A stretch of 64,000 bases of DNA from a virus: positions 1 through 64,000 of IMG/VR virus record IMGVR_UViG_3300010400_000004. One strand, given 5' to 3'. Below, in pieces: positions 17,701 through 59,163 of the stretch; positions within the stretch are counted from its first letter, which is position 1, and each line of letters starts with the position of its first letter. Below the pieces are notes generated by a model. That model saw only the letters and a program-made list of their open reading frames with translations, was not told where the DNA came from and made no database searches. Both the position numbers and the translations under genes were made by a program.

Positions 17701-20700
17701 GGAGAAAGTCGCGAAGTTTTTGGCCGTCGCTGATCCGGCGTTATCGCCTTTCGAAATAGATCGAACAAAAGGCACTTTTACCCCTGAAGGATGGAAACAG
17801 CTTTTCGACAAAGTAAATGTCTTCGCTGGAAATCAAGCTGCCGGTCTGACAGGCAAAGGCACTCCGCTCGCAATCGGCAAAGCGCGTGCATTCGGATTTT
17901 TCGAACCGACCGGCAATCGAGTGCCTGTAGGTAGCTTAACCGACGCAGAGATGAATTTCATCAACTATTTGTTCGGTTATCCACTCCCGGGTGAAGGTAA
18001 ACCGACCGTGGCAAGAGGCGGCAGCAAACAATACGGCGTGCAACTCATCTCCGAGGCAACTGAACCCGGCAGGGCTTTGCCCTTGGTTGAGCCGAGAACT
18101 TTCGCAAGCAAAGAAGCGGAGAGACTCGGTTTCGCTGGCAAGCAAGTCCTCGAAGTGAATCCGCTTCGCGCAGAAATTGAAGCGACTGCTCGGGCGACTG
18201 GAAACACCGCGCCGTCGCTTATTGAGGCTTGGCAAAACCTCAACTTGCGTGACATTGTTAGGGCGGACGTTGCTCCTGAGTTGCCAGCGGTTCGACCTGT
18301 GGGAGTCACGCTTCGGGCCGGATTCAAACCCCGCGATTTGGTTACTCCAAAGATTGAAAAAGAACTCTTGGAATCGAAAGTTAGATTCGAAGACGGAACT
18401 TTGAAACCCGTATTTCACGGGACCGTTTCTAGTTTTGACTTGAAAGATTTTGATACAAGTGGATTCAGAGCACATTTCGGAGCGCCGGGTCCAGCAGCCG
18501 CGAGAACAATAGGACCACTGAGTAGCAGAACTACGGGGGCAGTTCAATCTACCGAAGGATCACAAACTATTCCCGTATTTTTAGACATCCGAAATCCGTT
18601 GAAACTGGATGATGCGGCTAACTGGAATAATGCTTTAGATGTGGTTCGGGCTTTAGAAAAAGAAACAAGCGGCAAATTAAAACTACCCCGTAAATTACGA
18701 GACAGACAAGTAGGAAATCGATTAAACGATTTATCGGATAAACTTTTTAGAGAAAAGCAAGAATCAGGTGTGAGAGAAGAGGACATCGGGGAAGCCTCGT
18801 ATTTAGAGGCCAACAAAATAGTTATCGATGAAATAAAACAACTGTTGAAAGATCAAGGATATGATGGAATCGAATATGAAAACGCTTTTGAAGTCGGTCC
18901 CCGGGTGGCACCCGATTATAGCCGAGTAGGTGAAGAATTTGAAAAGGATTACGGAGACACCTCTTACATACCCTTTTCAAACGATCAGATCAAATCTGCG
19001 GTTTCCTTTAAACCTGCCGAACGCAAAGAAATCGAAATCACTGGTCCAGACGGCAAGCGATACAAAGCGATGTTCGACGGTTATCAGGATTTTTCCGTAA
19101 CCGGGCGCGGTCTTCAGCCTCAAATCACGGCTCTCGAAAACATACCGGGTGTTACTACTGCGAAATCGACTACTTACGGGGTCACGTTGGAGAAAGCTGG
19201 CTTTACACTACCGGAATTGCCTTCGCCTGAGGTTGCTTTCAAACCGCCTCGAAGAACGGAGGATTTTGGAACGATTGAAAAACAATTCGCCTTGGAGCAC
19301 CCGAATAATGCGGGGTCTCGATTTGTGGATGAGTTTTCGAAGATTCATCAAAAAGATGAAGAACTTCGACGCTTGATGAAGGACGTGTATTTTAAAACAC
19401 CGGAAGAATCAGATGATTTATATGATCAAGCTAAAGATGTTCAAAAATCTCTTACGAAACCTTCTAATGTGGCCGAGGCAAAACTCGGGGGATACATACA
19501 GGATCGTTATCCAGAACTGGTTAAAGAATCGAAACTGGCCAACGATTACTTCGAACAGTTATTGACAACCAAAGAGCAAGACATCCCAAGAATGCCTCTT
19601 ATTGTTCAGGCAAAAGAAGGTTTCGCGATAGGAAAAATAGTTCAGGAAGGTCACGACGCCCATGAAGCGCAGCGATTCCTCGATGACTGGCGCGATGAGG
19701 GATACGCTGAAGTGAAAAGTGAAAACCCAGCCCTGGCGCGTTGGATCGATGACAATTTGTTCTCGGGTAGCGGAAAAAACGCAGCTACAGAGGGCGTGGC
19801 ATTCAAACCAAAGTCGAAACCCAATGCCGCCGATGAGGATTTCGATGCGGTTCATTACAGCTCCAATGCCGGTCTTCGGACAGTCGATCCGAGTTTCTTC
19901 GGCAAAGGAAAGGCTACTCCCGCCGATCTGAGGGGCGGACCGAAATCATATTTTTTCGTAAAAGGTAGTGACTTTGGTCAAGATGCTGCTATATTCAAGG
20001 ATGCTGGTTTGCATGAACACGAGGTTCGGATTAAAGGCTCTGATCTCTACGATCTTCGAACCGGAAAGCCGGATGATCTCGGTTGGCGGAAGACGGTTAA
20101 TCGAGAAGAGGCCGATGATTTGGTCAAGGAAGCTGGATACAAGGGCATTGTTCTCGATACGGCAGACGGTAGGCAGGTAATCGCTATGTTTGAACCGGTC
20201 AAAGTCAAAAAACCGGCACCAGTGCAATTTTCTCCGATGCCCGCGAATCCTCGCGCAATCAAACAAGCTGCGGTGCGCGACGAGAAAACCGGCGAGGTTC
20301 ATGTCGGGATGTTGCATCCATCCATTGTAAACGATCTCATACAAAAATCAGTTGCAGAAGGAAAATATCACGAAGGAATAACTGATAATCTTGTAGATGG
20401 TTTTGTAACAAATGACGGAGAATTTCTCACCCGTGATGAGGCTTTCGACCGGGCAATAGAACTTGACCAAGTATCAGAAAAAGATTTCAAACTGAGGAAT
20501 TCCTGGTTGGAAAGTCGAGCCTTCGCTGCGGAACGAAAATTCAAACCGAAACAAATCGAGCCGCCGACCCAGGCCGAATTCGACGACCCGGACACGATCA
20601 AGGACGCACTCGCCAAACCGGGCTGGGCAATACTTACCGGCACTCGGGAGAAAATCGACGGAAAAGAAGTGCCTTTCGATCATCCGGAGAACCTGAAGGC

Positions 20701-22159
20701 GAATGAAGAGCTGAAGGCGGACATGGATGCTCAGGGTCTTGATTATTTTCCAGTGGACGGAACTTACAAAGGTCAGCCGCAAGGCGAATCGTTTGTCGTT
20801 CTCGGTATCACGCCTAAGAACGCTCAAAAACTCGCCAAGAATTATGGTCAGGAATCGGTATCCGTTCCAGAAGGATTGTTATACGGCAATGGCACGATTG
20901 TCCCAGGTGATGTTTCAAAGACAATCGTTGGACCTGAGGCGAAAAAACAGGAATTTTTCTCGACTACTCCTGAGGGAGTGAGTTTCAGCATCCCCTATGA
21001 ATTCGGCAAGCCGATTGAACCGGTGGGTAATCAGCCGGAACTTTTCGGGAAATCTGTTTCAGAAACGGAAGACATCAACCGACGCCTGAGGGCACGGGTA
21101 AACAACAAAAAAGAGAAGTTTCCCGAGTCAGCTCCATTGGGTTATGTTAAAGATGACGTGGGAAATTTCAAACTCGACAAGAAAACCGGAAAGCCAATAC
21201 CAGAGAAACAGGACTATTCGTTCCTCGACTCAGGGCTTGCCAAGGAAGCCGGAAAAGGATTGCGCGGCGATGATCGAGAGGCCGCTTATGTTGAATCAGC
21301 GGGCGATAAGTTAGCCGCCGAATATCGTAAAGCGGTCAAAGACCCGAAGGTTGCGGCAGGCGCGAAATGGTATTCGACGCTTCGCACCCGGCTCAAAAGT
21401 CTCTTCGGAAAACAAGCACAGCTTGTTTGTGAGATTCTAGCCGCGCTATCCGCACGAACGCCTGTCGAGACAAATTATCGTTTCGGCATCGACGCTTTGA
21501 ATAAATTCAATGCCGGGGATTACGATGCCCAACTCAAAAAATATCAGGAGGGACTCGATAAATGGGACGCCGGAAAAATTTCGGAATATGTGGATGCAAC
21601 TGGCTTAGATAATCCAAAGCGCAGCACTTTTCTTAACTGGTGGATCGATGAATTCGATCTGAAGCCGCGCCAAACCAACGGCAAACTCTTCGCTGCTAAT
21701 TCGAAAGCGTTATTGCGGGCGTTGCATGGTTCCTGGGAAGGCGGAAAAAAGACGAGGCAATTTTCTCAGAATATGTCGGGCGCAGATTTCGGTAGCACGA
21801 TCGATGTCTGGGCTGCACGCACGCTGCACCGGCTTTCCAATGAAGGGATTGTCGATCGATGGAGAATTTTGCCTGAACACGAGAACGCGGTGCAAGATGA
21901 CGACTTTGATGTAGCACAGAAAGTGTATAAGCATGCCGCCGATAAAGTTGGAGTGAAACCCGATGCACTTCAAGGAACACTCTGGTTCAAGGAAAAAGAC
22001 TTGTGGGAAAAACGCGGTTGGACGAGAGGCGCGGGCGCGGAGAAATCTGATTTTTCATCTTTGATTTCCGAGACGGAGAAACATCCATCCGGAGAATATC
22101 GTCTGAAGACACCCCAACTTAATTTACTAGAAGTTAAACCTAGACCAATACGAAAATGA
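14771..22159 (+). CDS. Giant internal virion / polyvalent protein (HExxH peptidase-like, ART-like x2, DUF3293-like, glycosylase-like domains)
   Basis: 2462 aa; HESFH...EISAD; VFHGT..F..HFG...PVFLDIRNPL...GYDGI; AVHYS...DP; WAILT..EN..AN..L...ESF...A..L...YGQESV; WY...AALS...N...KT..F..N...TIDVWAAR...LQ..LW. Confidence 0.7.
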   Translation: MPTTLESLDLEQRLSRPKQPLFDPTQVVGSEPVEDTTVSALRAQPIPDLKGYIDPADLEQGPPAPPPEPPKPGDEVDLTPEQLAEYRKQTGELDPLLDFTPEQLAQIEINDPEGGNLRRMYMDRPDLIGDPDTIKKLAQANKLVHARHEIPTAGLPPEVALGARVVGLGETAIEAAKHMHPLKAAKDFAVGVAKYAKNAIQGIASPFVPEETQQEYRQKAAENLAASELAVTGLAGGVRTAAHKAAQVAGIAKPYSELTDHEATDLFFSDLTKEAERQRIVTGKGAITQQIAGPVIEELAQAGKPIRPEEVSQLAAGDPFTFYAFAKGFGAAGSLVPAEAKAVLNDAATWVGEVSAESAGTALEGIGAAAKNLAKPIEVVSRQPSRFFKTGISGGLSKIAKEVGKRVPGAAEGVEQIGKEIRLGERAPLENYGGIVSDSAQFVRDAIEATPGAAGHVAAGGLFDVSTAAVMSEFPEEERGTGIGLAFGLLGAGRGLAGRVISGQEIAPRNWGTKTQIPTSGPFKGSAFDQQHEGAYRGAAPAVKQRINAVREFLRTAAPGVDLFYVPDKATFKQSLIDQGVSEADAELWSSSQGLSLRDLNGKPVAFAANIDAAPHESFHPFQDVIGKQANDALNQKVLSAYTEAEINQRGATDAKNLGWDGKGDYRDFLLDVTGEGYAQAIDSLTQEAARIIEFSTGQKATPADAKAQAMQMFNDAMTEATSKNPGVSPEAIRRNVWRGLLTEEQQKAAANNYIANEISADTWSAVFKHGKDPKGLVRRFAKVASTFVQLLGGEPLEGRFEDYTPLRKKAVEAVREAARARTEQPPKLFGEEPTVTPKIPEAPVAPRAPSPSPVSPPGTPEEEAKITKDVAATAPETPTGPEVNAQSQRDILGTMAEAKAGNYGVKITRRAAPGTPAGAIEVSRGRRREQIETARGIPDDQKPLWEKNFTPVKTVKLNDGSIQEQGWSPEVLAANAEKVAKFLAVADPALSPFEIDRTKGTFTPEGWKQLFDKVNVFAGNQAAGLTGKGTPLAIGKARAFGFFEPTGNRVPVGSLTDAEMNFINYLFGYPLPGEGKPTVARGGSKQYGVQLISEATEPGRALPLVEPRTFASKEAERLGFAGKQVLEVNPLRAEIEATARATGNTAPSLIEAWQNLNLRDIVRADVAPELPAVRPVGVTLRAGFKPRDLVTPKIEKELLESKVRFEDGTLKPVFHGTVSSFDLKDFDTSGFRAHFGAPGPAAARTIGPLSSRTTGAVQSTEGSQTIPVFLDIRNPLKLDDAANWNNALDVVRALEKETSGKLKLPRKLRDRQVGNRLNDLSDKLFREKQESGVREEDIGEASYLEANKIVIDEIKQLLKDQGYDGIEYENAFEVGPRVAPDYSRVGEEFEKDYGDTSYIPFSNDQIKSAVSFKPAERKEIEITGPDGKRYKAMFDGYQDFSVTGRGLQPQITALENIPGVTTAKSTTYGVTLEKAGFTLPELPSPEVAFKPPRRTEDFGTIEKQFALEHPNNAGSRFVDEFSKIHQKDEELRRLMKDVYFKTPEESDDLYDQAKDVQKSLTKPSNVAEAKLGGYIQDRYPELVKESKLANDYFEQLLTTKEQDIPRMPLIVQAKEGFAIGKIVQEGHDAHEAQRFLDDWRDEGYAEVKSENPALARWIDDNLFSGSGKNAATEGVAFKPKSKPNAADEDFDAVHYSSNAGLRTVDPSFFGKGKATPADLRGGPKSYFFVKGSDFGQDAAIFKDAGLHEHEVRIKGSDLYDLRTGKPDDLGWRKTVNREEADDLVKEAGYKGIVLDTADGRQVIAMFEPVKVKKPAPVQFSPMPANPRAIKQAAVRDEKTGEVHVGMLHPSIVNDLIQKSVAEGKYHEGITDNLVDGFVTNDGEFLTRDEAFDRAIELDQVSEKDFKLRNSWLESRAFAAERKFKPKQIEPPTQAEFDDPDTIKDALAKPGWAILTGTREKIDGKEVPFDHPENLKANEELKADMDAQGLDYFPVDGTYKGQPQGESFVVLGITPKNAQKLAKNYGQESVSVPEGLLYGNGTIVPGDVSKTIVGPEAKKQEFFSTTPEGVSFSIPYEFGKPIEPVGNQPELFGKSVSETEDINRRLRARVNNKKEKFPESAPLGYVKDDVGNFKLDKKTGKPIPEKQDYSFLDSGLAKEAGKGLRGDDREAAYVESAGDKLAAEYRKAVKDPKVAAGAKWYSTLRTRLKSLFGKQAQLVCEILAALSARTPVETNYRFGIDALNKFNAGDYDAQLKKYQEGLDKWDAGKISEYVDATGLDNPKRSTFLNWWIDEFDLKPRQTNGKLFAANSKALLRALHGSWEGGKKTRQFSQNMSGADFGSTIDVWAARTLHRLSNEGIVDRWRILPEHENAVQDDDFDVAQKVYKHAADKVGVKPDALQGTLWFKEKDLWEKRGWTRGAGAEKSDFSSLISETEKHPSGEYRLKTPQLNLLEVKPRPIRK

Positions 22160-26357: not shown

Positions 26358-26956
26358 AGCAGTTGATCCTTCTTCGATTGTAGCACCACGCGCAATTTTT
26401 TCAAAGCGCCTGAGTGCAGGTTTTGTATATGCTGTCGAGAGTATCCGAGCCGATCTCCGATTTCACCGAATGAAAAACCGGATTCATATCGGAGTATCAA
26501 AATCGCCCTCTCTCTATCATTCAACGATCCGAATATAGCAGGCCGCAGGCCGTTGAATAACTCTTTTGTTTCAAGCCGCGAAAAGTCCGGTTCACAATAG
26601 GTATCGACGAGAGGTTTGTCTTTTTCCGGGTAATCTGCCGAGGTGGTATAAGAATTTTTCACTACAAGGCGGCGTTTGAATTCCCGATTGATCTGACCGC
26701 GCAAATATTGCTTCGTAAAGGCGAAAAATCGGATTCCGTTCGATTTGCGCTTGCGAAAATTCTTCGCGGCCTGCCTGAGAGCAATCCAGCACATCGACAC
26801 GAGTTCTCCCTCAGGAAACTCACCCCGCGAACAGTGCCGGGAATAGTCGAGTGCTTCCGCCATATTGACGAGTGCGAGTTTGTCGAGGGCACGCTTGTTG
26901 CCCTTTTTGATTAGCTCGAATTCTTCGGATGTATCTATTGCTTTGGGAAAATCCAT
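26354..26956 (-). CDS. Phage RNA polymerase sigma70-family factor
   Basis: Region 2 (L..AAKNF.....RF.AF..QYLRGQI) and region 4 (LNDRERAIL.LRY..GFSF.EIG..LG.SRQ.I.NL...ALKKLR). Confidence 0.88.
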   Translation of the reverse strand: MDFPKAIDTSEEFELIKKGNKRALDKLALVNMAEALDYSRHCSRGEFPEGELVSMCWIALRQAAKNFRKRKSNGIRFFAFTKQYLRGQINREFKRRLVVKNSYTTSADYPEKDKPLVDTYCEPDFSRLETKELFNGLRPAIFGSLNDRERAILILRYESGFSFGEIGDRLGYSRQHIQNLHSGALKKLRVVLQSKKDQLL

Positions 26957-29022
26957 AATCGCGATTTGTTTTCTCCGGTCTCAACGAAGCATTTAATCAT
27001 GCCGTCCTTTTGTAACACTTCAAGAAACCGGTTGATTTGTTCGAGTTTGTAACCTCTGAGCAAAAAATCATTCATCGGATTGCTGTTCAACAATCGGGCG
27101 AGTTGTGTGAGAGTGCCGCGCCACTCCGTTGCCTCCGGAGTCTGAGCGAAAAAGTCCTTGAGTTGTTCGAGTAAAATTTCCTTAATCGGAGCTGCCCTGC
27201 TGGTCTGGTGTGTTTGGTCAATCAAATGGGCGTCGTGATACGGCAAATACCCGTATCGACCGTCCCGCGCAATGTAATCGGGCGGAGTCCAGGCGAGGGC
27301 ATAAGCACAGAGTTGCGGCAATTCCGTCTTGAGCCTCTTCTGCAATTCGTATCTCTCGGGAAAATCGATTTTATCGGTAGTGCATCGATACACACAGGTT
27401 TTCTCCGCCGAAGAGTTATCGAGTGATCCGAGTATCCTCGAACTGGTAAAATCCATATTGGCGGTGATGCCAATTCTACCGGCCCACTCAACTGTTACAG
27501 GAACCCGGAATTTTTCGTTCACTCGGAATTCTTGATTCGCTGCCGCCTTTTTCAGCATAGCACTAAACCGGTCGTGAGCACTGAGAGAATTGCCCGGGGT
27601 CTCGTCGTCGATCGCCCACAACGGAACGTGATAGTTTTCTGAGCCAAAGTCGTCGCCCTGCACAATATATTTCGCGGCATCCACGAATCCTCCGACAGTT
27701 GCTCCGACAACATGCCGAAGCGCGAAGGTCTTGCCGCGATTCGCTACACCGAGGATGAAAATATTCTGTCCTGGACGGGGCAATAATTCGTATCCGGAGG
27801 TGTAAAAATGCTTATACCATGCAAGGAACCATTCGAATTGAATCGGCCCGAAAAGCTGTTTGAGGAAATCCAGCACCCACAAATTCTCCGAGTAGGTCTC
27901 ACTCGGACGCATCACGTTGTTACGCCAAGTGTTCAGGACTTTCCGATGATTGTATTCGATTAAGCCCGGTGTGCGATACACGAACGGAGCTGCACCGACC
28001 ACCCGGGCGTTTTCGTGAAGATGAAATAGCGTGTCTTCGATTTTCTTCTCAGGAATGCCGCAACCTTTCTTGAGATAGATTTTCATCGCTGATTCGTTCA
28101 CCGATTGATAAATCCCATCTATTTTTCGCCAGTAAGCTTGCCCATCGTGGTAAATATCTAGCGTTGCTTTTGCGATTGCGCCTTCATTGATCTCTTTGAC
28201 GAAATCTTTGCCGAGGATTTCCGACCAGGGATAGAAGGGTTTACTTGCGTGAGCACTGAAGGTAAGCATGCCTTCAGCTTTGATAATGGCAGAAAGCGGA
28301 CTAACCGATTCGGCAATCCAAAAACTCGGCCCCTGTGTATCAAGATCAAATGCCGAGGGCCATGAAAAACCTGGGAACCTTTCTTTAATCGCCGCTTCCA
28401 CCACTTCAAGAGGGATTTCGTTTCCTTCGGGGGCTTTGAATTTGAACTTTTTGATTGCTTCGACATAGAATGACTGTAGTTGAATTTCACTTACGGCATC
28501 GGGCGAACCAAGAACTTTACGCCAAGCCGCTCCGTTACAGTAAAGACGGGTTGGGTTTTCAAAAGCTGGCGAATCGAGACCCGGAAGTAGATCGAGAGAA
28601 AGCCACTTGCGAGCCATCTGAAGAATCCAGACAGCAAAGTCTGTGGTTTCAACCGCCATCGGACGAGACAATAACCAGACGAGACGGCAATTACCTCCCA
28701 AGGATCGTTCGATCCACTGAGGCTTGATGGACATGGATGCCACGGCTTCGTCGATTCTATCATCGGGGATTCGGACATCGTAATCGGCCACGAAGGCGTG
28801 AATGAACTTGGCGGGGTTATCTTTACTGAGTCTTTGATTGCAGTTGGCGGGTTCGATGGATGTGTAGAAGTTCCATTTTGTGTTATGAGTTCTGTAAAAA
28901 ATTTGTCTCTCATTTTTATCCTGTTTTACTTTTTCGGATGGCATCTGATCTGGTTTGTATTCCCAAGGAATACAGGGGACCAGAACCTTCTCAATTAAAT
29001 TTCCACAGGCAAAGAACTTCAT
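26935..29022 (-). CDS. Primase-polymerase (AEP-like) fused to SF3 helicase
   Basis: N-terminal FVADYD (DxD) and SLGGNCRLVW; Walker A GVANRGKT, Walker B AIDDE, N.KF, TAN. Confidence 0.75.
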   Translation of the reverse strand: MKFFACGNLIEKVLVPCIPWEYKPDQMPSEKVKQDKNERQIFYRTHNTKWNFYTSIEPANCNQRLSKDNPAKFIHAFVADYDVRIPDDRIDEAVASMSIKPQWIERSLGGNCRLVWLLSRPMAVETTDFAVWILQMARKWLSLDLLPGLDSPAFENPTRLYCNGAAWRKVLGSPDAVSEIQLQSFYVEAIKKFKFKAPEGNEIPLEVVEAAIKERFPGFSWPSAFDLDTQGPSFWIAESVSPLSAIIKAEGMLTFSAHASKPFYPWSEILGKDFVKEINEGAIAKATLDIYHDGQAYWRKIDGIYQSVNESAMKIYLKKGCGIPEKKIEDTLFHLHENARVVGAAPFVYRTPGLIEYNHRKVLNTWRNNVMRPSETYSENLWVLDFLKQLFGPIQFEWFLAWYKHFYTSGYELLPRPGQNIFILGVANRGKTFALRHVVGATVGGFVDAAKYIVQGDDFGSENYHVPLWAIDDETPGNSLSAHDRFSAMLKKAAANQEFRVNEKFRVPVTVEWAGRIGITANMDFTSSRILGSLDNSSAEKTCVYRCTTDKIDFPERYELQKRLKTELPQLCAYALAWTPPDYIARDGRYGYLPYHDAHLIDQTHQTSRAAPIKEILLEQLKDFFAQTPEATEWRGTLTQLARLLNSNPMNDFLLRGYKLEQINRFLEVLQKDGMIKCFVETGENKSRLWIFPKQ

Positions 29023-29498
29023 CGAAAATTCGGGGCTGCAAATTTTCCAAAATATTTCTTGGCTGCACGGTCATACGCAATGGCAGCTTCTTTTTCATTA
29101 TGAAAGTAACCTAAATGGAAATGCCGTCCACCCATCCTAAGACCCGCCCTCCATTTACCGGCGAAACGATTCCAGCACACCCCCCGATATTTTGACGACT
29201 TCCTAGCTTGGGGTTTTTGAACAGACATGTGGTTTTGACTGTTAGTTGCTATTCGTATTTTTCTCCGTCGATTATCGAGACCGTTTCCGAATCTATGATC
29301 GACCTCAACTCCGGAGGGAGCGTTCAATACTTCCCGATGCATTAAGACTAGATTCGGTTTCTCTCCTTTAGGACGGTGCCGTGCAGCATAAAACTGCTGG
29401 CCCATTTTAGAAGCATACCATTTGTAACGATTCAACCGGTGAAAATCTCGATTATCCACCATCGCAAATTTTCCTTGCGTCAAAGGTATTAGTTTCAT
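29019..29498 (-). CDS. HNH-AP2 homing endonuclease
   Basis: IPLTQGKFA.VD, MHR, VDH..GNGLDNRR...AT.SQN, SKYRGV, LGYF..E.EAA.AYD. Confidence 0.92.
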   Translation of the reverse strand: MKLIPLTQGKFAMVDNRDFHRLNRYKWYASKMGQQFYAARHRPKGEKPNLVLMHREVLNAPSGVEVDHRFGNGLDNRRRKIRIATNSQNHMSVQKPQARKSSKYRGVCWNRFAGKWRAGLRMGGRHFHLGYFHNEKEAAIAYDRAAKKYFGKFAAPNFR

Positions 29499-29499
29499 G

Positions 29500-29694
29500 T
29501 CAGTTCTTCGCTATCGACGCCAGATGCCAAACAAAATCGTGCATCAGAATTAGTTCGCCATCGATCATTGCTTGCGCGTAATCTTTACCTTTTACGCGCA
29601 CAAGATGCCATTTGTGTTTGTTTATCTGTTCAAACAAATCGTCGTCCACGGTTGCTTGTTTTCCGTTACCATTTACTAATTCTATTTTTTTCAT
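29500..29694 (-). CDS. Truncated HNH-endonuclease N-terminal domain
   Basis: A.VDDD.FE..NKHKW...YA...MH matches the N-terminus of HNH-AP2 enzymes but ends before the catalytic DH. Confidence 0.55.
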   Translation of the reverse strand: MKKIELVNGNGKQATVDDDLFEQINKHKWHLVRVKGKDYAQAMIDGELILMHDFVWHLASIAKN

Positions 29695-29696
29695 AT

Positions 29697-31682
29697 CTAC
29701 TTTAAATAATGCAGAACCTCTTTTGCCTCGGCTTTCACTGGCAACCCGGCGCACCATTCCGGACACTCCGACATGATGGTTTCAACATCGTGTTTGGTGA
29801 TGTGTTGGTCCGCTTCGAGGATCGCTTCATCGTGGCTGGAAAATAAAATGTCAATTCCGGATGTGGCATGCAGGGTTAATAAGTGATCTGAAAATACGTC
29901 TCGCGCCATTCCTTGAGTAACGTTGGCTGTAAAAGCTCCCCCATAGTATTCAAAACGTCTGCCGCCGATTTCGCATGTAAACACTGTTGACAGTTTTGGT
30001 TTGCCGTCCTGGTCCGGTTTTATCCGTCTCTCACATCGGACTTTTTCATACAATAGCGCACGTCCATTCGGGAGAACAACTCTAAAGTCTGAGCCGACGC
30101 TGCGTTTAAACATTGCGTCAAGTCTTGCCCAAATGCCTTTTTCTTTGTCAGCAATCAAAGGATTTTTAGACCGATAATCAGCTACAATTTCTTTCGATTT
30201 TTTTCCATACCCACTGATACGAGTGCCATCCGGCAATTCGATCCATTCGGGGTCTTCGGCTGTTAAATCCGTGCCCGTATAGAGGGCACTCATCGCTATA
30301 AATTTTTCCCAGCCAGCCCCATAACCGAGTGCCAATTCTCTCGCCTTCGCTTCTGCATAAAGCAGCGGATTTTCTTCCTTCAAATCGCCCCCGGTCCACC
30401 CAAGGTTCGTTCGAGCGTGCGCTTCGTAAATACTCATGCCGCCGCGAACCCAATCTAATTTTGCGGTATCTTTAGCAAGCCACGCAAGACACCTTGGCTC
30501 GATTTGCGACAAATCAGAAACAATCATCTTCTTTCCAGGGCGCGGTATTACGAGGTGTCTGAAATCAATCGGATACTTTACCCACTCCGGAAAATTTCCC
30601 TCTTTTTTCTTTTGTTCCAGTGCTGCTTTGATTAGTTTTTCATCGGTCTCCATTACTCCGAGTTGATTGCAAAGAATCGGTTCTTTTCGCATGTTTTGCA
30701 TGTTTATCTTTGCATCTCCGCTCCACCTGCCGGTAATCGCACCGAAATACTTCAAACCAAAGGGCATCGTTCCGTCCGAGCGAATTCTTTCCTTCACCGT
30801 GAGAAAAGTTTTGTAAAGCTTGTTGATCGATCGCCAGCTACTCAAAGCACTGATCCAGGGATTAGCATCTCGATATGTATTTTCCCATTCTTCGTAAGCC
30901 TCTTCGCCCTCATGCGCTTTTACCGGAGGTGACGGAATGCCGACTCTCCTACACTGCTCTGCAATACATTTTGTGGAAGTCGGGGCTGTATCGAAGTCCT
31001 CCCAAGTGTCCTCGTCGCTTCCGTCGTCTTCGAGCCAAGGCAACAGTTTTTCGGTCGCCAGCTTCATTGAATGACTCTGACAAATGTAGGTATCGAGCAG
31101 CTCAGTATTGATCTGCACTCCCCGCATGCCCTGGTCGATTGTCATGTTCGATAATCGCTTTTCTTTCTCGGGCCATTTCGCAGAGTGATCGACCCAAATT
31201 TTTCGACACCAAAAAGGATCGTTGCGCGAATACTCCAGCATGATTTTTTGCTGTTCCGGCGTGAAGTCTGCGGGCCATTTTTTACCATCCGAGCTGTCGC
31301 GAGGGTCTTTGGACAACTTGATTTTGTAGAGGTATTCGAGTGCCTGAGAGAGTGATCTTCGATTGCAGAGGTATGCGGTTAAGTTCGCACTACAGTGCCA
31401 CTCCGCATAAGCAATTTTTGGTGCCCAGCCGCGAGTCACCATTTCATTGTAAACGGTATTGTCGAAATATCGATTATGACTGATAAGCGTTGCCCCTTCT
31501 AGGCACGACCAATTAAAGTCTCTCGGAGAACCGGCCCAGCAACTTGCGCCGTCTGAGACAGAAATTAAATACGGATCAAAGAGGGAATGCTTGCAGTATT
31601 GCTCTGCAATCATCTGCTTCAAGCCGTATTTCAGGCGTTTTGAGAAGTAGGTCTCAAAATCGACCCCGAGGATTTGTCCCAT
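29697..31682 (-). CDS. polA: Family A DNA polymerase with 3'-5' exonuclease
   Basis: Exo DFET, HN.YFD, Y..ND; TGRWSG, N.QN; motif A DLSQIEPR; motif B KARELALGYG; motif C HDE. Confidence 0.93.
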   Translation of the reverse strand: MGQILGVDFETYFSKRLKYGLKQMIAEQYCKHSLFDPYLISVSDGASCWAGSPRDFNWSCLEGATLISHNRYFDNTVYNEMVTRGWAPKIAYAEWHCSANLTAYLCNRRSLSQALEYLYKIKLSKDPRDSSDGKKWPADFTPEQQKIMLEYSRNDPFWCRKIWVDHSAKWPEKEKRLSNMTIDQGMRGVQINTELLDTYICQSHSMKLATEKLLPWLEDDGSDEDTWEDFDTAPTSTKCIAEQCRRVGIPSPPVKAHEGEEAYEEWENTYRDANPWISALSSWRSINKLYKTFLTVKERIRSDGTMPFGLKYFGAITGRWSGDAKINMQNMRKEPILCNQLGVMETDEKLIKAALEQKKKEGNFPEWVKYPIDFRHLVIPRPGKKMIVSDLSQIEPRCLAWLAKDTAKLDWVRGGMSIYEAHARTNLGWTGGDLKEENPLLYAEAKARELALGYGAGWEKFIAMSALYTGTDLTAEDPEWIELPDGTRISGYGKKSKEIVADYRSKNPLIADKEKGIWARLDAMFKRSVGSDFRVVLPNGRALLYEKVRCERRIKPDQDGKPKLSTVFTCEIGGRRFEYYGGAFTANVTQGMARDVFSDHLLTLHATSGIDILFSSHDEAILEADQHITKHDVETIMSECPEWCAGLPVKAEAKEVLHYLK

Positions 31683-31793
31683 AAAATTTGTGGGCGGTCT
31701 CTCCCGCCAGTCACGGTGTCCGGTATGGCGCAATTCTTTGCCGTTAGTATTTTCCGGCTCACGCTCTGGCTGTCACCGTTTAACCGTTAAGTT

Positions 31794-32003
31794 CTAAGAC
31801 GCTCCGCCGTTCCATTTAAGCGGATCGAGCCGACTTTCTAAGTTTGCCACTTCTTCCTTCAGGTTCACAACTTGTTTTTTCAGTTGTTCAACCTGGGTGT
31901 CAACGATGAGTAATTCCTTGTCGAGCCGTTCGATATTGAAACATACCGGGCAGCGGTCCGACTCGAAAAGCACCGGATCATGGCCAGCGTGACAGGTCTT
32001 CAT
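31794..32003 (-). CDS. Hypothetical protein (Cys/His knuckle and coiled coil)
   Basis: C..GH...CPVC then heptad repeats; ATGA-coupled. Confidence 0.55.
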   Translation of the reverse strand: MKTCHAGHDPVLFESDRCPVCFNIERLDKELLIVDTQVEQLKKQVVNLKEEVANLESRLDPLKWNGGAS

Positions 32004-32308
32004 TCGGGCACCTCTTCCACAAGTTTGACGATGGAGGCTTCTCGATTCGGATAGGCCCGATTTTTAAAATCAAGGGCATCTTCCCGAAGGACAAAAAATT
32101 GACTTAATAGCCCGTATTCCGAAATATCCAGGGCGTATCGAACCCGAGGTTCCGGCTTGATTCGATATTCACAGCGCGGATTTTCGAATCCGAGGTTTTC
32201 TCCGTTCAACCAAATATCATTAGATTCTGGAAACCGATATTGAACAGGTTTTCCTTCAGCATAAGCCGTGATAAACGGCAACATTTTCTTTGCGTGTTCT
32301 CGTGTCAT
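32000..32308 (-). CDS. Hypothetical phage protein
   Basis: I.AYAEGK.VQ...W...F...EYRIKP pattern common in phage ORFs. Confidence 0.6.
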   Translation of the reverse strand: MTREHAKKMLPFITAYAEGKPVQYRFPESNDIWLNGENLGFENPRCEYRIKPEPRVRYALDISEYGLLSQFFVLREDALDFKNRAYPNREASIVKLVEEVPE

Positions 32309-32658
32309 TGGTTTAGTAGTTGTTCGGAAGTTTCGAGGACGGTTCGAAAAAATTCGAGATAATCTTTACGGCATACCACGTTTACTTGTAGCAGTGCCCG
32401 GGCTGCGGTGTCTCGCATCTCTTTGATCTGAGCATGAGATTTGCCCAAGTCGATTGGCTTTGCTGATGATCCACTTATCGATGTTTCATCGAGTCGTTTA
32501 TTCGGTCCGAGATTGCTACATGCCGTCCGGATCGTCGCTGAGACACTGGCGTCGAGCGCAGTAAGAAAACCCGGGCCGGATTGGTTGCCAAGACCCTTGA
32601 CTAATTTTTTCACCGCCGAGGTGACGATGAATTCCGGTTTTGATGTTTCTTCACTCAT
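32305..32658 (-). CDS. Histone-fold protein (bacterial/phage histone-like) with helical C-terminal extension
   Basis: FIVTSAVKKLVKGLGNQSGPGFLTALDASVSATIRTAC...NKRLD matches the short-alpha1, long-alpha2, basic-loop pattern of bacterial histones. Confidence 0.6.
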   Translation of the reverse strand: MSEETSKPEFIVTSAVKKLVKGLGNQSGPGFLTALDASVSATIRTACSNLGPNKRLDETSISGSSAKPIDLGKSHAQIKEMRDTAARALLQVNVVCRKDYLEFFRTVLETSEQLLNQ

Positions 32659-33277
32659 TGTCGTCGCCTTCCTCTTTCGTTCCAGCCGGTTCGAGCTTCT
32701 GCAAGCAGCTCGGACAATCCGGGGCACCGATGTCGAGCCACTTTTGCGTTATCCGGATCGTGTAGCCGCAACCTCCGCATTCGCATTTCAGAAGTCGCGT
32801 CGATTGTTTCTTGCCGGGTGCCTTGAGACCGTTGAGTGGCGAGTGCGGATATTCGCCAAGCACCGCCGTCCATGTCGAAAACTCCGAAATCAGTTTTTCG
32901 CCCGCGTTGGTGGAGGTAAGTTTTCCTTCCAGACCGACCGCCCGAGCGCACTTTCCGAAAACTTTATTGTGACCTTCCTTGTGTCCGACTACAGCGTGGA
33001 CAACCTCGTGAACGAGCGTTGCGAGGACTCCCGTGTCCGAGTCGATTTCCTCAATCGCGGGACTGATGAAAATCTGCGCGGCCTTTTTGTCGGCACTTGA
33101 TGTTTTCGACCAGCATTCACCGAGGACTCGTTTCTTGTTCGCCAAACCGCCGCGCACTGGCCAGCCGCACGCAACTCTCACCTGGGGCACTTCGTATCCT
33201 GAGGCTTTGAAAAGGCTCGTCATCGCGCCGACTGCCGCCTGGAGCCATTCTTCCCGAGTTTTGTATTGTTTGCTCAT
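32651..33277 (-). CDS. SprT-like zinc metalloprotease
   Basis: TLVHEVVH...GH...F; C-terminal C.C..CGY...CP.C. Confidence 0.8.
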   Translation of the reverse strand: MSKQYKTREEWLQAAVGAMTSLFKASGYEVPQVRVACGWPVRGGLANKKRVLGECWSKTSSADKKAAQIFISPAIEEIDSDTGVLATLVHEVVHAVVGHKEGHNKVFGKCARAVGLEGKLTSTNAGEKLISEFSTWTAVLGEYPHSPLNGLKAPGKKQSTRLLKCECGGCGYTIRITQKWLDIGAPDCPSCLQKLEPAGTKEEGDDNE

Positions 33278-33480
33278 ATTTTTTGTGGAACGTAATTCGC
33301 TAGTTCGTATTGAATTTCCGGCCATTGTTTTCGGCAGTCATCGAGGAAAGTCTCTGCTGCTTCGACAGACTGCCCGATATTACAATACCACACCTCGCCA
33401 TTTTCCTTGCGCGTGCATCGAATCCAGTAGCATTGACTGGCTGGCAGAATTTGATCCGCCTTCATCGGTTCCCGGTTCAT
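33274..33480 (-). CDS. Hypothetical protein
   Basis: ORF packed between neighbours. Confidence 0.45.
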   Translation of the reverse strand: MNREPMKADQILPASQCYWIRCTRKENGEVWYCNIGQSVEAAETFLDDCRKQWPEIQYELANYVPQKI

Positions 33481-33481
33481 G

Positions 33482-33781
33482 TTACTTGCTCCCGTGTTCA
33501 AGTCCGCGAAAATAGGCTCGCACGGTGGGATACCGGCCAGCCTGCAAAAACGACTTCGCGATGTCCACCGACAATTCAGCGATAGCGCGGAGGTTGGCCT
33601 TGTAAAGTTTCGAAACCCAATAGCTTTGGTCTGCGATTGCGCGAACCTGATCGTAAGCAATCACGCTTAGTTTCGCGGGATTCTGCTGTTCAGCGATTTT
33701 CTTTTCGGCAAACTGCAACCAGTCAATTGCCACCATCGAAGCCACCGCTTCCGCGTATTTTGAATTGTGTTTTTGTTTCAT
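33482..33781 (-). CDS. Hypothetical protein
   Basis: ATG after an A-rich leader, 99 aa. Confidence 0.5.
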   Translation of the reverse strand: MKQKHNSKYAEAVASMVAIDWLQFAEKKIAEQQNPAKLSVIAYDQVRAIADQSYWVSKLYKANLRAIAELSVDIAKSFLQAGRYPTVRAYFRGLEHGSK

Positions 33782-33827
33782 ATTTTTTTTTGTTGGTCGT
33801 TTATTCGACTTCACTACTTATCGCACC

Positions 33828-35660
33828 TTATCCAACGAATGTCAAATGTTTCTTTGCCCGGGTCAGCGCCACGTAGTAAATATTCGCTTCCTCGTCTGAC
33901 CGCCCAGGCTTGAAAGTCGCCTGGAGAAGAAATACTCGACTCCACTCTAAACCCTTGGCCTTGTGGACACTAGAGAGAACCACAGCGGGTTTCGCGGTCT
34001 TGCTGTCGGAGTCTTGGAAAAGGCTGTAAATTCTTGACTCGATGTCACTTACACTCGAAGCGTCTTGCGCCACTGCCGCGAGGGTTTCAACAGTATCGTT
34101 GACCTGGGCGATCTTCGCTTCCGCATTCTTGCCGACTGCCATCCGTTTGCGTTGCTTTGTCGCCCAAGAGTCGAGCTTACGGAAAAAGTCTGGAACCGAT
34201 TTCGCCCTGAGTTTCCTCACCGTGTTAACTAGTTGGGCACCAATGTCCCGGCCTTCAATTCTGGCGGAAACGCCGCGTTTCAGCAAATTCAAGCAGGTGG
34301 ACATTAAAGGCGCGTTTAAACGGCTGAGGATCGCGTCCCCGATAACCGCGTGTTCGACGGCGGAGACAACCTCGTCAACGATACCCTCCGGAGCACTCGG
34401 GGCAGCGTTGTAATCGGGCACGATTTCAGCCGCCAGAGCCACTACAGCCTTCGGGCAACGGTAAGTGGTGGTAAGAGACAACTTCGTTGCCGAAAGCCTC
34501 TCCTGCATCATCCTCATTCCATCCTGAGCCGCTCCACGAAACGCATAGATCGCTTGGCGGTCGTCGCCCACTACGCAAATCCGGCCTCCAGGCAAGCACG
34601 CCCGAATCGCCATTTCGAGCTGAGGGACATTCATGTCCTGGCATTCGTCAACCACGACCAGCGGGAACCTGGGGAAAACCCAATTCATCGCGACTGGCAA
34701 CCAGACCATATCGTTGAAGCTAATTCGGCCTTCAACATCTCGCTCTTTGGCCAGTTCCAGGGCGGTGAATGCGACCGAGGCGAGGCGAGCCACTGTCCAG
34801 CCGCCGTCTTCAGGGGCTTCACTGGCGGAGAAAATACCCTTGTCGTTCGCCAAGTCGATCAGAAGATCAATTGTGGGCGAAATCAGGGTATTCTTGGCGA
34901 AAGCCACAAGACGTTCAACGCAACCGGAGACTTCCTCCGGAATTCCAGGGCAGGCGGCTTCGATCCGGGCCGATTCAACCGATGAGTCGGGCTTTACACC
35001 CGGCCAAACGGTTTGAATGTAAGAAAACCCAAGAGAGTGTTCGGTCCGGATTTCAACTCGCTTGTCCTTGATTTTGCGCTCCGCTTCGATCTGGTTTTTC
35101 TTGTTGAAAACGAGATACAAGGCGGAGGACTCCAGGGCATGCTTGAAAGCTTCTTCGATGGTGGTCGTTTTGCCAGTCCCGGCACGAGCACCGACAACCG
35201 CATTGCCAGTGCCCGACGCAAACCAAGCGAAAATCGCCTTCTGCTCATCGGACCAAATTCGGGAGGGAGTAGAGGGAATCGAACCCTCTACGCCTGCGCT
35301 CAAACTATCAGTGCCAGTCGAGGCACCCGAGACGCTTGACGACTGCACAGGCACGGAACCATCCACTCCCACTGAACCGACAACCGATACGTTGGAGTTG
35401 TTTGTCTCCTGTGCGATAGAGTGAGTAGTCGCACTCGTATCGGTTGTCGAGCCAGTAGTATCTAACGGTTTCTCCCATAGCAGCACCGACCAGTCGCCGG
35501 TTTGCTTGTCCTTGTCGCAACTAACGCCCTCTGCTTTCAGAGCCGCTTTATTCGACCTCCAGGCAACCCAAAAAGCCGGTGTAGGATTCGCCTTGCGGAG
35601 ATTGCCAACCCTCGTGAGTTTCGGCTCGCTCCATTTCAGATTCAGTCCGTCGATCAACAT
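33828..35660 (-). CDS. UvrD/Rep-like SF1 helicase with N-terminal accessory domain
   Basis: WSDEQ, ARAGTGKT, VDECQD, VGDDRQAIYAFRGA, TYRCP, SVHKAKGLEW, YVALTRAK. Confidence 0.93.
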   Translation of the reverse strand: MLIDGLNLKWSEPKLTRVGNLRKANPTPAFWVAWRSNKAALKAEGVSCDKDKQTGDWSVLLWEKPLDTTGSTTDTSATTHSIAQETNNSNVSVVGSVGVDGSVPVQSSSVSGASTGTDSLSAGVEGSIPSTPSRIWSDEQKAIFAWFASGTGNAVVGARAGTGKTTTIEEAFKHALESSALYLVFNKKNQIEAERKIKDKRVEIRTEHSLGFSYIQTVWPGVKPDSSVESARIEAACPGIPEEVSGCVERLVAFAKNTLISPTIDLLIDLANDKGIFSASEAPEDGGWTVARLASVAFTALELAKERDVEGRISFNDMVWLPVAMNWVFPRFPLVVVDECQDMNVPQLEMAIRACLPGGRICVVGDDRQAIYAFRGAAQDGMRMMQERLSATKLSLTTTYRCPKAVVALAAEIVPDYNAAPSAPEGIVDEVVSAVEHAVIGDAILSRLNAPLMSTCLNLLKRGVSARIEGRDIGAQLVNTVRKLRAKSVPDFFRKLDSWATKQRKRMAVGKNAEAKIAQVNDTVETLAAVAQDASSVSDIESRIYSLFQDSDSKTAKPAVVLSSVHKAKGLEWSRVFLLQATFKPGRSDEEANIYYVALTRAKKHLTFVG

Positions 35661-35666
35661 GGCGCT

Positions 35667-35694
35667 AATATACACGAGACTGAATCACGTTCAA
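35667..35694 (-). promoter_or_regulatory. Promoter TTGAAC-N16-TATATT, leaderless to the helicase ATG
   Basis: ATG lies 6 nt after the -10. Confidence 0.6.
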
Positions 35695-35705
35695 CAACTA
35701 TTTTG

Positions 35706-35740
35706 AAAAAAGTTAGCCGATCGCATCCCGACCGGCTAAC
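35706..35740 (-). terminator. Intrinsic terminator
   Basis: GTTAGCCGGTCG-GGATG-CGATCGGCTAAC then T6 on the - strand. Confidence 0.8.
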
Positions 35741-35768
35741 CACTTGAACCCGAGCAGCTTAAGACAAA

Positions 35769-36626
35769 TTAAGCAGATACCGGCTGCACGATATTCCGAA
35801 TGAATTCCAGCACTTCCGGCGACGTAGGCCGAAGCGGTGTAGCGACAGGAACCGGTGCCGTAAAAGCGCCATCCGGCAACTTGAATTGCTTCGGCTTCGT
35901 CGTCAGTCCGAAGGCATGCGTGTAATATCCGCCGCGCAGCAATCCCATCAGCCGGTGATAGTTGAAAACGCCCTTGACAGCCTCAGTGTATGCCGATCCC
36001 TTGCAAGACCAGAATCCGATGGTGAATTGTTTGTCTCCGACAGGGAAACCGAAAACCGCTCCGCCGTCGTTGACATGCGCGGGCTTTTCGATTGCCACGA
36101 GAAGTTCAACGAGAGGCTCGAATCGACGCATGCCTTCGCCCTTCTTCAGATTCCACTCTTTGTAATCGAGTGTGCCGCCAGCGGCACGAACCTCTGCTTC
36201 GCTATCCACAATTTCACCGCCCATGCCACCCTTGATTTTCTCGGAAAAACGTTCGCTCACGATGCCGAGAACGTAAATCACGACTGGCGGCAGAGCCGCT
36301 TTCTTGATGACGCCTTGCGCTTGATCGATCTCGGGCGGAGTGTAGAGAATCGTTTCCTTGCCGAAAACAATTGCGCCAGCGGGAAAAGATTTTCCAAGTT
36401 CGCCAACTGAATACACGATATTCAATCGCGGGAGCGTAACGTCCTTGAACCCTGGCAGACGATCTCCGAGCCGGAACGCATTCGCGCCCTGAGTGGCCGG
36501 GACAGAGTGAGTGGTTGTGGTTTCGACTTTCACGTCAGCGACGGGAGTGTTGACCACTTGCTTTGTTTCCTCTACCACCGGTGCCGGTGCAGAGCCGTTA
36601 TCATTTCCGAATTTTACTTCAGGCAT
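35769..36626 (-). CDS. Putative single-stranded DNA-binding protein
   Basis: DVTLPRLNIV...G.IV pattern; position in the nuclease-SSB-helicase-PolA module; inference. Confidence 0.55.
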   Translation of the reverse strand: MPEVKFGNDNGSAPAPVVEETKQVVNTPVADVKVETTTTHSVPATQGANAFRLGDRLPGFKDVTLPRLNIVYSVGELGKSFPAGAIVFGKETILYTPPEIDQAQGVIKKAALPPVVIYVLGIVSERFSEKIKGGMGGEIVDSEAEVRAAGGTLDYKEWNLKKGEGMRRFEPLVELLVAIEKPAHVNDGGAVFGFPVGDKQFTIGFWSCKGSAYTEAVKGVFNYHRLMGLLRGGYYTHAFGLTTKPKQFKLPDGAFTAPVPVATPLRPTSPEVLEFIRNIVQPVSA

Positions 36627-59006: not shown

Positions 59007-59081
59007 GGGACTGTAGTTTAACGGGAGAATGACCGGCTTGCACCCGGTAGATGTCAGTTCGATTCTGACCTGTATCCACCA
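59007..59081 (+). tRNA. tRNA-Ala(TGC), bulged acceptor stem
   Basis: ACCGG-CTTGCAC-CCGGT, G3:U70, TTCGATT T-loop, CCA. Confidence 0.8.
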
Positions 59082-59087
59082 ATTTTT

Positions 59088-59163
59088 CGGAATGTAATGT
59101 CAGCGGAAGACGGCTCGGCCTGGAACCGAGAGGCCGAAGGTTCGAATCCTTCCATTCCGACCA
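59088..59163 (+). tRNA. tRNA-Pro(TGG) with C33 and A37
   Basis: 76 nt, C1:G72/A73, CTCGG-CCTGGAA-CCGAG, GGTTCGAATCC, CCA. Confidence 0.88.

Follow-up and report, generated by a model that had tools for sequence, protein, structure and literature searches.

Whether a phage replication operon encodes its own histone, and what such a protein would do there, is the question raised by a 117-residue protein (P0001) encoded at 32305..32658 on the minus strand of IMG/VR virus record IMGVR_UViG_3300010400_000004. Positions 1 to 64,000 of that record were analysed (64,000 nucleotides, hereafter the window). The record comprises a complete genome of 74,533 bp that has direct terminal repeats, and the phage genome contained tail-protein matches, replication genes and two tRNA genes, at about 49% G+C. 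An earlier note, made from the letters of the window alone, had called P0001 a phage histone-fold protein, and this identification was borne out by profile homology to the histone HTkC, the helix layout of the predicted structure, fold searches, predicted contacts of the handshake type, and gene context.

The open reading frame (ORF) of P0001 extended on the minus strand from an ATG at 32658 to a TGA stop at 32305-32307, the stop codon being included in the coordinates of the gene. The start at ATG 32658 was supported by a Shine-Dalgarno-like motif (GAGGAAGG; 32667..32674, minus strand) located 8 nt 5' of the ATG and still inside the SprT-like gene, at its 3' end, by the alignment of four close homologues (64-79% identity), all of which started with MS[DE]E or MAET at the same position, and by the 8 nt which the start of the gene shared with the stop region of the SprT-like ORF (ATGAGTGA). 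The move of the start to ATG 32658, the length of 117 residues and the string quoted from the protein in the earlier note all agreed letter for letter with the translated ORF. GTG 32727 was rejected as an alternative start; the 23 extra residues that it would add were found in no homologue. P0001 was more than a chance ORF because it belonged to a family of about 100 proteins with near-invariant F31 and D36, plus C47, which was invariant in the clade of two-domain members.

Searches with the single sequence of P0001 returned no match in Pfam (E ≤ 1), PHROGs, NCBIfam or the PDB (phmmer, E ≤ 10), and a Pfam scan of 24 family members gave noise only, the thresholds of PF00808 (CBFD_NFYB_HMF) and PF09123 (DUF1931) not being reached. 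Among the neighbours of P0001 in the ESM Atlas, taken as a lead only, viral clusters came first, and behind them stood clusters from Bdellovibrionota and archaea that were partly annotated with PF00808 (33-38% of members at ranks 12 and 19). A profile of five relatives matched 19 proteins among 1.84 billion representatives, most of them 105-128 residues long and aligned end to end, and a few of 64-68 residues aligned with the N-terminal half only; two further profile searches enlarged the family to 103 proteins. Against the PDB, a family profile of 24 sequences had HTkC (9F2C) as its sole match (hmmsearch E 1.4e-5; query positions 4-56). With an N-terminal-only profile HTkC was again matched (E 3e-4), and HBb/Bd0055 was next best (E 0.08), residues 6-45 of HBb aligning to the profile through VVTSKVKKLIKEKGQ.NTSAETIDVL. 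Alignment of 37 family sequences to HTkC by hhalign gave a probability of 96%, with 33% identity over 51 columns. At this level of profile comparison, the P0001 family appeared detectably homologous to established alpha3-truncated histones, with which it had the motifs VxSxVKK, SPEF and G-x-K-T/R-L in common. The Bd0055 likeness pointed out in the earlier note was real and could be aligned through the pattern given there, P0001 having a motif like VVTSKVKKLIK; it was, however, weak (the E of 0.08 given above), the nearest solved relative being HTkC, and the Arg-Asp (RD) clamp of Bd0055 (RxTxxxxD), part of the same pattern, was absent.

A C-terminal extension of 50-64 residues was present in about half of the 103 family proteins. 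In a tree of the histone domain (quick IQ-TREE run, 65 columns only, weakly supported), 48 of the 51 two-domain forms fell on one branch (SH-aLRT 83) and 44 of the 52 short forms on another (SH-aLRT 91), while six proteins of 59-65 residues, one of them from an Endomicrobiales metagenome-assembled genome, formed a separate group. The two-domain forms thus clustered in this tree, which would be compatible with a single gain of the hairpin without proving it. When P0001 and P0044, one of the short relatives, were compared by tblastn with 50,697 GenBank phage records, nothing matched; no copies were found in contigs of prokaryote genomes, and searches of viral contigs with two further relatives (P0016 and P0038) found nothing.

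An AlphaFold2 (AF2) model built from 37 sequences reached a predicted local distance difference test score (pLDDT) of 66.7. The histone domain was laid out as alpha1 (13-22), L1 (23-28), alpha2 (29-50; 22 residues), L2 (51-57) and alpha3 (58-61), the latter of only 4 residues and with a pLDDT of about 55 for that block. This domain was followed by a low-confidence linker (62-70) and two helices (71-90 and 97-115; pLDDT 70-80), in agreement with the linker and helical domain of about 45 residues read from the sequence beforehand. On the genome, the N-terminal alpha3-truncated histone fold (residues 9-61) corresponded to 32476..32634 and was delimited by AF2 secondary structure, the HTkC profile match, hhalign, Foldseek and VIA-align; the linker, with low pLDDT and with sequence and length that differed across the family, corresponded to 32449..32475; and the C-terminal helical hairpin (residues 71-115), delimited by AF2, conservation counts and self-contacts, corresponded to 32314..32448, all on the minus strand. 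According to Schwab et al. (2024, PMC11390915), alpha3-truncated histones have a shortened alpha2 and an alpha3 of 3-4 residues, and the modelled P0001 likewise combined a helix-loop-long helix-loop-helix histone fold with a short alpha3 and a shortened alpha2.

The five best Foldseek matches in the PDB were HLp (9QT0), HBb (8FVX/9EZZ) and HLp (9QT1), and HTkC ranked 11; the E-values were weak (0.7-4) because the domain is short, and the target-normalised TM-scores (TMt) were 0.60-0.70. The root-mean-square deviation (rmsd) of the HTkC Foldseek alignment was 1.1 Å over 43 columns. VIA-align superposed the model on HTkC, HLp and HBb with Z values of 5.2-5.4; 52-56 of 56-63 residues were covered, at an rmsd of 1.8-2.4 Å. 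Profile and Foldseek comparisons with histone folds, which had been proposed as a check, therefore both favoured the histone assignment (hhalign 96% for HTkC; HLp and HBb at the top of the PDB matches). In BFVD, uncultured Caudovirales phages supplied the top two matches, both of them short proteins (probability 1.00, 30-36% identity), and the third was A0A516LIY4 (E 0.31, 109 columns). The C-terminal part (residues 55-117) matched only generic alpha-hairpins in a wide VIA-align search (Z 6-6.9; CsoR/CstR/FrmR, DHp domains, CHMP and designed bundles), so that this domain received no specific fold or function from that comparison. The hairpin turn had a conserved motif, L90-Q-x-N93-x-x-T96-K-x-E99-[YF]100.

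Self-association was modelled with ESMFold2, using four copies, the family's own alignment and three controls. The four-copy run scored an ipSAE of 0.56, compared to 0.00 for the best of the three controls; a score of 0.56 was attained by 20 of the 30 proteins that had been solved as one-chain pairs, and of the 23 single-chain structures only 1 attained it. Contact agreement between runs was at least 47% and partner pLDDT at least 57. The tightest contacts (39-39, 35-43 and 38-42) described an antiparallel alpha2-alpha2' crossing, and were followed by contacts of 16/19/20/23 with 39-47 (alpha1 on the partner alpha2) and of 25 with 47 (L1 near the end of alpha2'). Hairpin residues 81-108 were also in contact between copies. 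In the model, these contacts support a histone handshake dimer in which both domains are paired, although the score may partly reflect memory of known structures, since alpha3 histone dimers have already been solved. Of the dimer and tetramer modelling suggested in the earlier note, the dimer part was answered with contacts of the handshake type, and the tetramer was not confidently predicted.

The DNA contacts of HBb are T8, S9, K10, K12, K16, N22, S24, K52, T53 and R57, its RD clamp is R51-D58 (PMC11317129), and the alpha3 histones studied so far bind the DNA backbone without sequence specificity (PMC11317129). Mapped by hidden Markov model (HMM) alignment, continued by eye through loop L2, the P0001 equivalents of the ten contacts were T13, S14, A15, K17, K21, Q26, G28, K54, R55 and T59. 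Conservation was counted in the 51 two-domain members of the family: S14 and K17 were each kept in 49, K54 in 45, and position 55 was T or R in 49; F31 was found in 50, and no member lacked D36 or C47. Because S14, K17/K18 and K54-R/T55 are conserved, DNA binding by P0001 appears plausible from its residues, though not assured, and either oligomerisation or a partner may determine its affinity for DNA.

Several cysteines recurred in the family. C27 occurred in 33 of the 51 two-domain members, P0001 itself having S27, and Cys was frequent at position 8 (13/37) and at position 87 or 111 (approximately 27/37) in the 37-sequence alignment; in the clade of the window, C47 alone was kept among these. 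C27 and C47 aligned with the buried hydrophobic positions V23 and I43 of HTkC. A metal site formed by C27 and C47 was rejected for P0001, given S27 and the alignment of both positions to buried hydrophobic residues; a metal or redox role of the family cysteines is still conceivable.

The architecture of P0001 has been described before, so that its novelty is below what the earlier note had assumed. Schwab et al. defined a category of "phage histones" from Caudovirales metagenomes with an N-terminal alpha3 fold and a C-terminal helical tetramerisation domain, without RxTxxxD, with conserved K10 and K49 and highly conserved R30 and G17, predicted to tetramerise and bridge DNA, and exemplified by A0A2E7QIQ9 and A0A516LIY4 (PMC11390915). 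P0001 resembled this category in its alpha3 fold and C-terminal helical domain, its origin in a tailed-phage genome and its lack of the RxTxxxD motif; K10 and K49 corresponded to K17 and K54 (spacing of 37-40 residues in the family and 39 in the published logo), and A0A516LIY4, the third-best BFVD match mentioned above, is labelled "Phage histone" in the Schwab supplement. It differed in other respects. At the position of R30 (position 37, +20 from the alpha1 Lys), none of the 51 two-domain members had Arg, the residues there being A, S, K or G, and 17 of the 52 short relatives had R there; G17 was matched by Gly at position 24 in 15 of the 51, including P0001 itself (G24), both positions being mapped by spacing from the alpha1 Lys rather than by the authors' HMM. 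The C-terminal domain is one helix in the published figure legend and a predicted two-helix hairpin with a conserved turn in P0001; the invariant C47 was a further difference of the P0001 clade, and the tetramer predicted for the category was not confidently reproduced for P0001.

Liu et al. (2025) mined IMG/VR 4 and reported two clusters of Caudoviricetes histone-fold proteins, VTTHFP and VHHHFP (PMC13681535). VTTHFP, with an N-terminal alpha3 fold, a flexible loop, a C-terminal helix, a predicted tetramer and conserved K5/K9/R29/K48 (PMC13681535), had the same layout as P0001, which matched this signature only in part, lacking the Arg at +20 and a Lys at -4. VHHHFP has no C-terminal helix, and conserves K8/K9/K47/R48 (PMC13681535); these four residues resembled K17, K18, K54 and R55 of P0001, from which VHHHFP differed by the absence of the C-terminal helical domain. 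P0001 is hence described here as a phage alpha3 histone that carries a C-terminal oligomerisation domain, and as a new clade-level member of the architecture that Schwab et al. named "phage histones" (2024, PMC11390915) and Liu et al. VTTHFP (2025, PMC13681535), a placement made by architecture and lysines. Phage alpha3 proteins are treated by prediction only in the survey by Liu et al. (PMC13681535), and the literature searched yielded no experiments with a phage alpha3 histone.

Among solved proteins, HTkC from Thermococcus kodakarensis (9F2C), which was crystallised as a face-to-face alpha3 histone (PMC11390915), was the best relative of P0001 (32-35% identity; rmsd 1.1-1.8 Å over 43-53 residues), and shared the motifs VKxxVK, SPEF and G-x-K-T-L with it. 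HTkC differed from P0001 in its length of 59 residues, in having no C-terminal domain and in forming a torus-shaped tetramer via its histone folds, and at the position of N53 in P0001 it has retained R51 of the RxT motif. HBb/Bd0055 of Bdellovibrio bacteriovorus (PDB 8FVX, 8CMP, 9EZZ, 9F0E) and HLp of Leptospira perolatii (9QT0) have an alpha3-truncated fold like that of P0001; the Bd0055 motif VVTSKVKKLIK closely resembled FIVTSAVKKLVK of P0001, and several DNA-contact positions of HBb were also kept. HBb is, in contrast, a dimer of 60-odd residues with the RD clamp R51-D58 and no C-terminal domain, of marginal sequence similarity to P0001 (E 0.08), and a chromosomal, essential and abundant nucleoid protein, whereas P0001 is phage-encoded. 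MJ1647 of Methanococcales, whose C-terminal tetramerisation domain gives DNA bridging that has been confirmed experimentally (cited in PMC11390915), was a functional analogue in combining a histone fold with a C-terminal helical oligomerisation domain. It is an archaeal histone of the nucleosomal type with a full-length alpha3, and no sequence relation to P0001 was detected.

The histone gene was the second of a four-gene translationally coupled cassette (31794-33325, minus strand), the coupling following from successive stop/start and ORF overlaps in the sequence. The SprT-like zinc metalloprotease gene (32651..33325) matched PF10263 above its cut-off (26.8 bits compared to 25.6; E 4.8e-6) and phrog_6361 (E 7.6e-48), and its product had an HEVVH motif and a C-terminal CxxC...CxxC ribbon. 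Downstream of the histone gene, an ORF of 102 residues with no assigned function (32000..32308) had its ATG overlapping the histone stop (ATGA) and a weak match to phrog_21668, and overlapped by 4 nt an ORF of 69 residues (31794..32003) with a Cys/His-rich N-terminus and a coiled coil, for which Pfam returned coiled-coil noise only; both small ORFs had homologues in L001, one of the related loci compared below. The surrounding minus-strand block was a replication module, with a UvrD-like superfamily-1 helicase gene (33828..35675; Pfam UvrD-helicase E 2.3e-17; phrog_1967 E 7.5e-85), a family-A-type DNA polymerase gene (29697..31733; Pfam DNA_pol_A E 5.9e-8; phrog_17 E 9e-58), which was the conserved neighbour downstream of the histone gene, and a gene for a DUF5906-containing primase/helicase-like protein (26935..29022; matched to PF19263 at E 3.2e-4, short of the curated cut-off, and found in synteny in L001 and L002). 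The adjacency of a SprT-like protease and the location of the histone gene within a replication operon, both claimed earlier, were thus found again with the Pfam and PHROGs matches of these genes.

Five related loci (L001, L002, L005, L007 and L008) were recovered and compared with the window. In the window and in all five loci, the histone gene was 0-3 genes upstream of a polymerase gene of the same type on the same strand. Synteny with the window extended throughout L001; the polymerase gene came directly after the histone gene in L005 and L007; the order in L008 was SprT-like, histone and polymerase genes; and in L002 an HNH-like ORF and an ORF of 220 residues separated the histone from the polymerase gene. 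The SprT-like gene was directly upstream of the histone gene in three (window, L001 and L008) of the four loci which showed the upstream gene, its place in L007 being taken by a homologue of a 285-residue ORF. The polymerases of the syntenic loci were 60-75% identical, so the loci represent one phage lineage and their synteny is not independent evidence. With the polymerases of cultured phages, that of the window shared only about 25% identity, and no host could therefore be inferred.

The function that best accommodates these results, held here with somewhat better than even confidence, is that of a handshake dimer on the DNA backbone joined to a self-associating hairpin, making P0001 a multivalent protein that bends or bridges DNA during replication. 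Two N-terminal domains (approximately residues 9-61) would interlock as a handshake dimer, with antiparallel alpha2 helices crossing around V39. Backbone contacts of the HBb type would be retained by the first turn of alpha1 (T13, S14), by K17/K18/K21, by N25/Q26/S27 of L1 and by K54-R55 of L2, the Arg-Asp clamp being lost. The C-terminal hairpin (71-115) would self-associate into a helical bundle, and because of this self-association a particle would present at least two DNA-binding surfaces, or four if two dimers join, and may bend double-stranded DNA or bridge it, irrespective of sequence. The protein would be made from the replication operon, coupled to the SprT-like metalloprotease and the two small ORFs, just before the polymerase gene; since it would be expressed from that position, its target is most likely replicating phage DNA or the host nucleoid in early to mid infection. 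The fold, the homology, the contacts of the dimer type, the conserved residues and the synteny come from the in silico results, and on them we build the rest of this proposal: that DNA would be bound and bridged, the oligomer number, the timing and the DNA targeted. The roles suggested in the earlier note (coating or bridging of DNA, protection against nucleases, silencing of the host, cleavage by the SprT-like protein) would likewise be candidates only.

Several results weigh against it. Model confidence was moderate, and a first AF2 model from 5 sequences was poor (pLDDT 43.9). In the four-copy run the scored copy confidently contacted one other copy only, so that a tetramer, and hence bridging, received no support from that run. 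The RD clamp (RxTxxxxD) was missing, with N53 at the Arg and S60 at the Asp position, and position 53 was A, N, M or L in most two-domain members; this L2 position was K/R in the short relatives and A/N in the two-domain clade. The published phage category is without the motif too, so that the clamp is no defining feature of the alpha3-truncated superfamily. P0001 was only mildly basic (net charge +2, pI 8.6), and the median net charge of the histone domain was +3 in the two-domain clade compared to +6 in the 52 short relatives of 60-70 residues. HTkC, as counted from its sequence, was also near neutral. The conserved gene order may reflect simple inheritance and not functional linkage.

The constancy of the polymerase neighbour suggests another role, by analogy with Dpb3-Dpb4 (POLE3-POLE4), the histone-fold subunits of eukaryotic DNA polymerase epsilon: the P0001 dimer could be a double-stranded DNA tether or processivity subunit of the family-A polymerase, with the hairpin docking on the polymerase or another replisome protein. 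In all six loci the histone gene is encoded on the strand of the polymerase gene and 0-3 genes upstream of it, which would fit such a role, as would the persistence of that position despite the replacement of the SprT-like gene in L007 and the inserted genes in L002. The lower positive charge compared to the short relatives would suit a partner-dependent protein, and no sliding-clamp or thioredoxin-type processivity factor was seen among the operon proteins scanned, a search that was not exhaustive. The six loci belong, however, to one lineage with polymerases 60-75% identical, and self-contact in the model already gives the hairpin a role; a replisome accessory is therefore considered rather unlikely. 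Coupling to the protease would instead point to a protein-protein scaffold that no longer binds DNA, for example one that the co-translated SprT-like metalloprotease has as its partner, substrate or regulator. DNA binding is absent from many histone-fold proteins, the DUF1931 pseudodimers among them, and the 8-nt stop/start overlap in the window, the SprT-like gene directly upstream in L001 and L008, the clade's loss of the RD clamp, its reduced charge and its A/N instead of the L2 K/R would all be compatible with a scaffold, the invariance of C47 and the frequency of C27, C8 and C87/C111 hinting at a metal or redox role. Retention of S14, K17 and K54-T/R55 in nearly all members would nevertheless be hard to explain without DNA contact, the SprT-like gene was not the upstream neighbour in L007, and C27 and C47 aligned to buried hydrophobic residues of HTkC (V23 and I43), which leaves this reading improbable.

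To about the same degree improbable is a factor of gene expression or host takeover that would bind the host nucleoid or phage promoters and either shut off host transcription or time an early-to-late switch, much as other nucleoid-binding proteins of phages act. Its encoding in an operon of the early/middle type, the DNA-contact residues kept by the histone fold and the resemblance of the dimer-of-hairpin architecture to the small all-alpha repressors CsoR, CstR and FrmR (Z 6-6.9, generic) could be cited for it, but the fold matches of the hairpin were generic, the operon yielded no repeated operator-like motif, and the alpha3 histones studied so far bind the backbone without sequence specificity (PMC11317129). 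That P0001 would not be a histone fold at all, being a small helical protein with a chance likeness to alpha3 histones, is very improbable. Such a chance likeness could be argued from the lack of any Pfam, PHROGs or NCBIfam match and of any single-sequence PDB match, from Foldseek E-values above 0.1 and from VIA Z values of about 5, which are common for helical models. Independent profile-sequence matches fell, though, on alpha3 histones only, the top-ranked fold matches were all alpha3 histones and covered whole chains, the motifs VxSxVKK, SPEF and G-x-K-T/R-L were held in common with them, and the predicted contact map was of the handshake type. A multivalent, DNA-bending or DNA-bridging phage histone thus remained the preferred account of P0001.

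Other features of the genome were recorded alongside. Approximately 550 bp of the minus strand at 33300-33860, from the helicase stop (33828) to the SprT-like start (33325), were 92-98% identical to L001 at the DNA level, the flanking genes being only 60-78% identical; this stretch contained overlapping ORFs at 33482-33814 and 33274-33660, one of which had 100% protein identity to L001 over 99 residues, and it represents either a recent exchange between the phage of the window and L001 or a strongly constrained element. Rfam gave no match over 31600-36000, and operator-like repeats sought in the operon were not found. A 95-nt intergenic element (31695-31789) upstream of the polymerase gene was 80% identical to positions 2684-2778 of L001, where it was located upstream of the UvrD-like helicase gene, the two phages thus carrying it at different intergenic sites; as RNA, it had a folding z of -2.64 and a GC-rich hairpin at its end.

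The 285-residue ORF (35769-36626, minus strand) had no match in Pfam, PHROGs or NCBIfam, and was kept in L001 (62% identity) and in L007 (45%; positions 3000-3908 of L007). Two small ORFs (29019-29498 and 29500-29766, minus strand) lay between the polymerase and primase-like genes, and the one of 159 residues resembled by eye an HNH/AP2-type homing endonuclease, a likeness without Pfam confirmation; the HNH-like ORF of L002 (positions 512-763 of that locus), between the histone and polymerase genes, was a different one. In the structural half of the genome, an ORF of 2462 residues (14771-22159, plus strand) had only a weak C-terminal match (phrog_3842, E 6e-9), and most large structural ORFs of the phage had no PHROG match, which places the lineage far from cultured phages. 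The tRNA genes, Ala(TGC) and Pro(TGG), were adjacent (59007-59163, plus strand).

The finding overturns nothing, and its value is moderate. Phage alpha3 histones were otherwise known, in the literature searched, from two computational surveys only. The complete 74.5-kb phage genome gives the gene a clear and conserved address, coupled to the SprT-like gene and just upstream of the polymerase gene. The two-domain forms made up a coherent clade of about 50 members that differed from the published logo by having no conserved Arg, by being less basic and by an invariant Cys, and S14, K17, K54, C47 and the hairpin turn are concrete residues for testing. A bolder version of the polymerase association, and an improbable one, would make the histone-fold dimer a dedicated double-stranded DNA tether of the phage polymerase and a viral counterpart of Dpb3-Dpb4, with the hairpin docking and the SprT-like protease clearing it from DNA; if true, P0001 would be the first replisome subunit with a histone fold from outside the eukaryotes. 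With this gene, it becomes approachable to ask whether phages organise or bridge DNA with histones of their own, and whether that activity is tied to replication.

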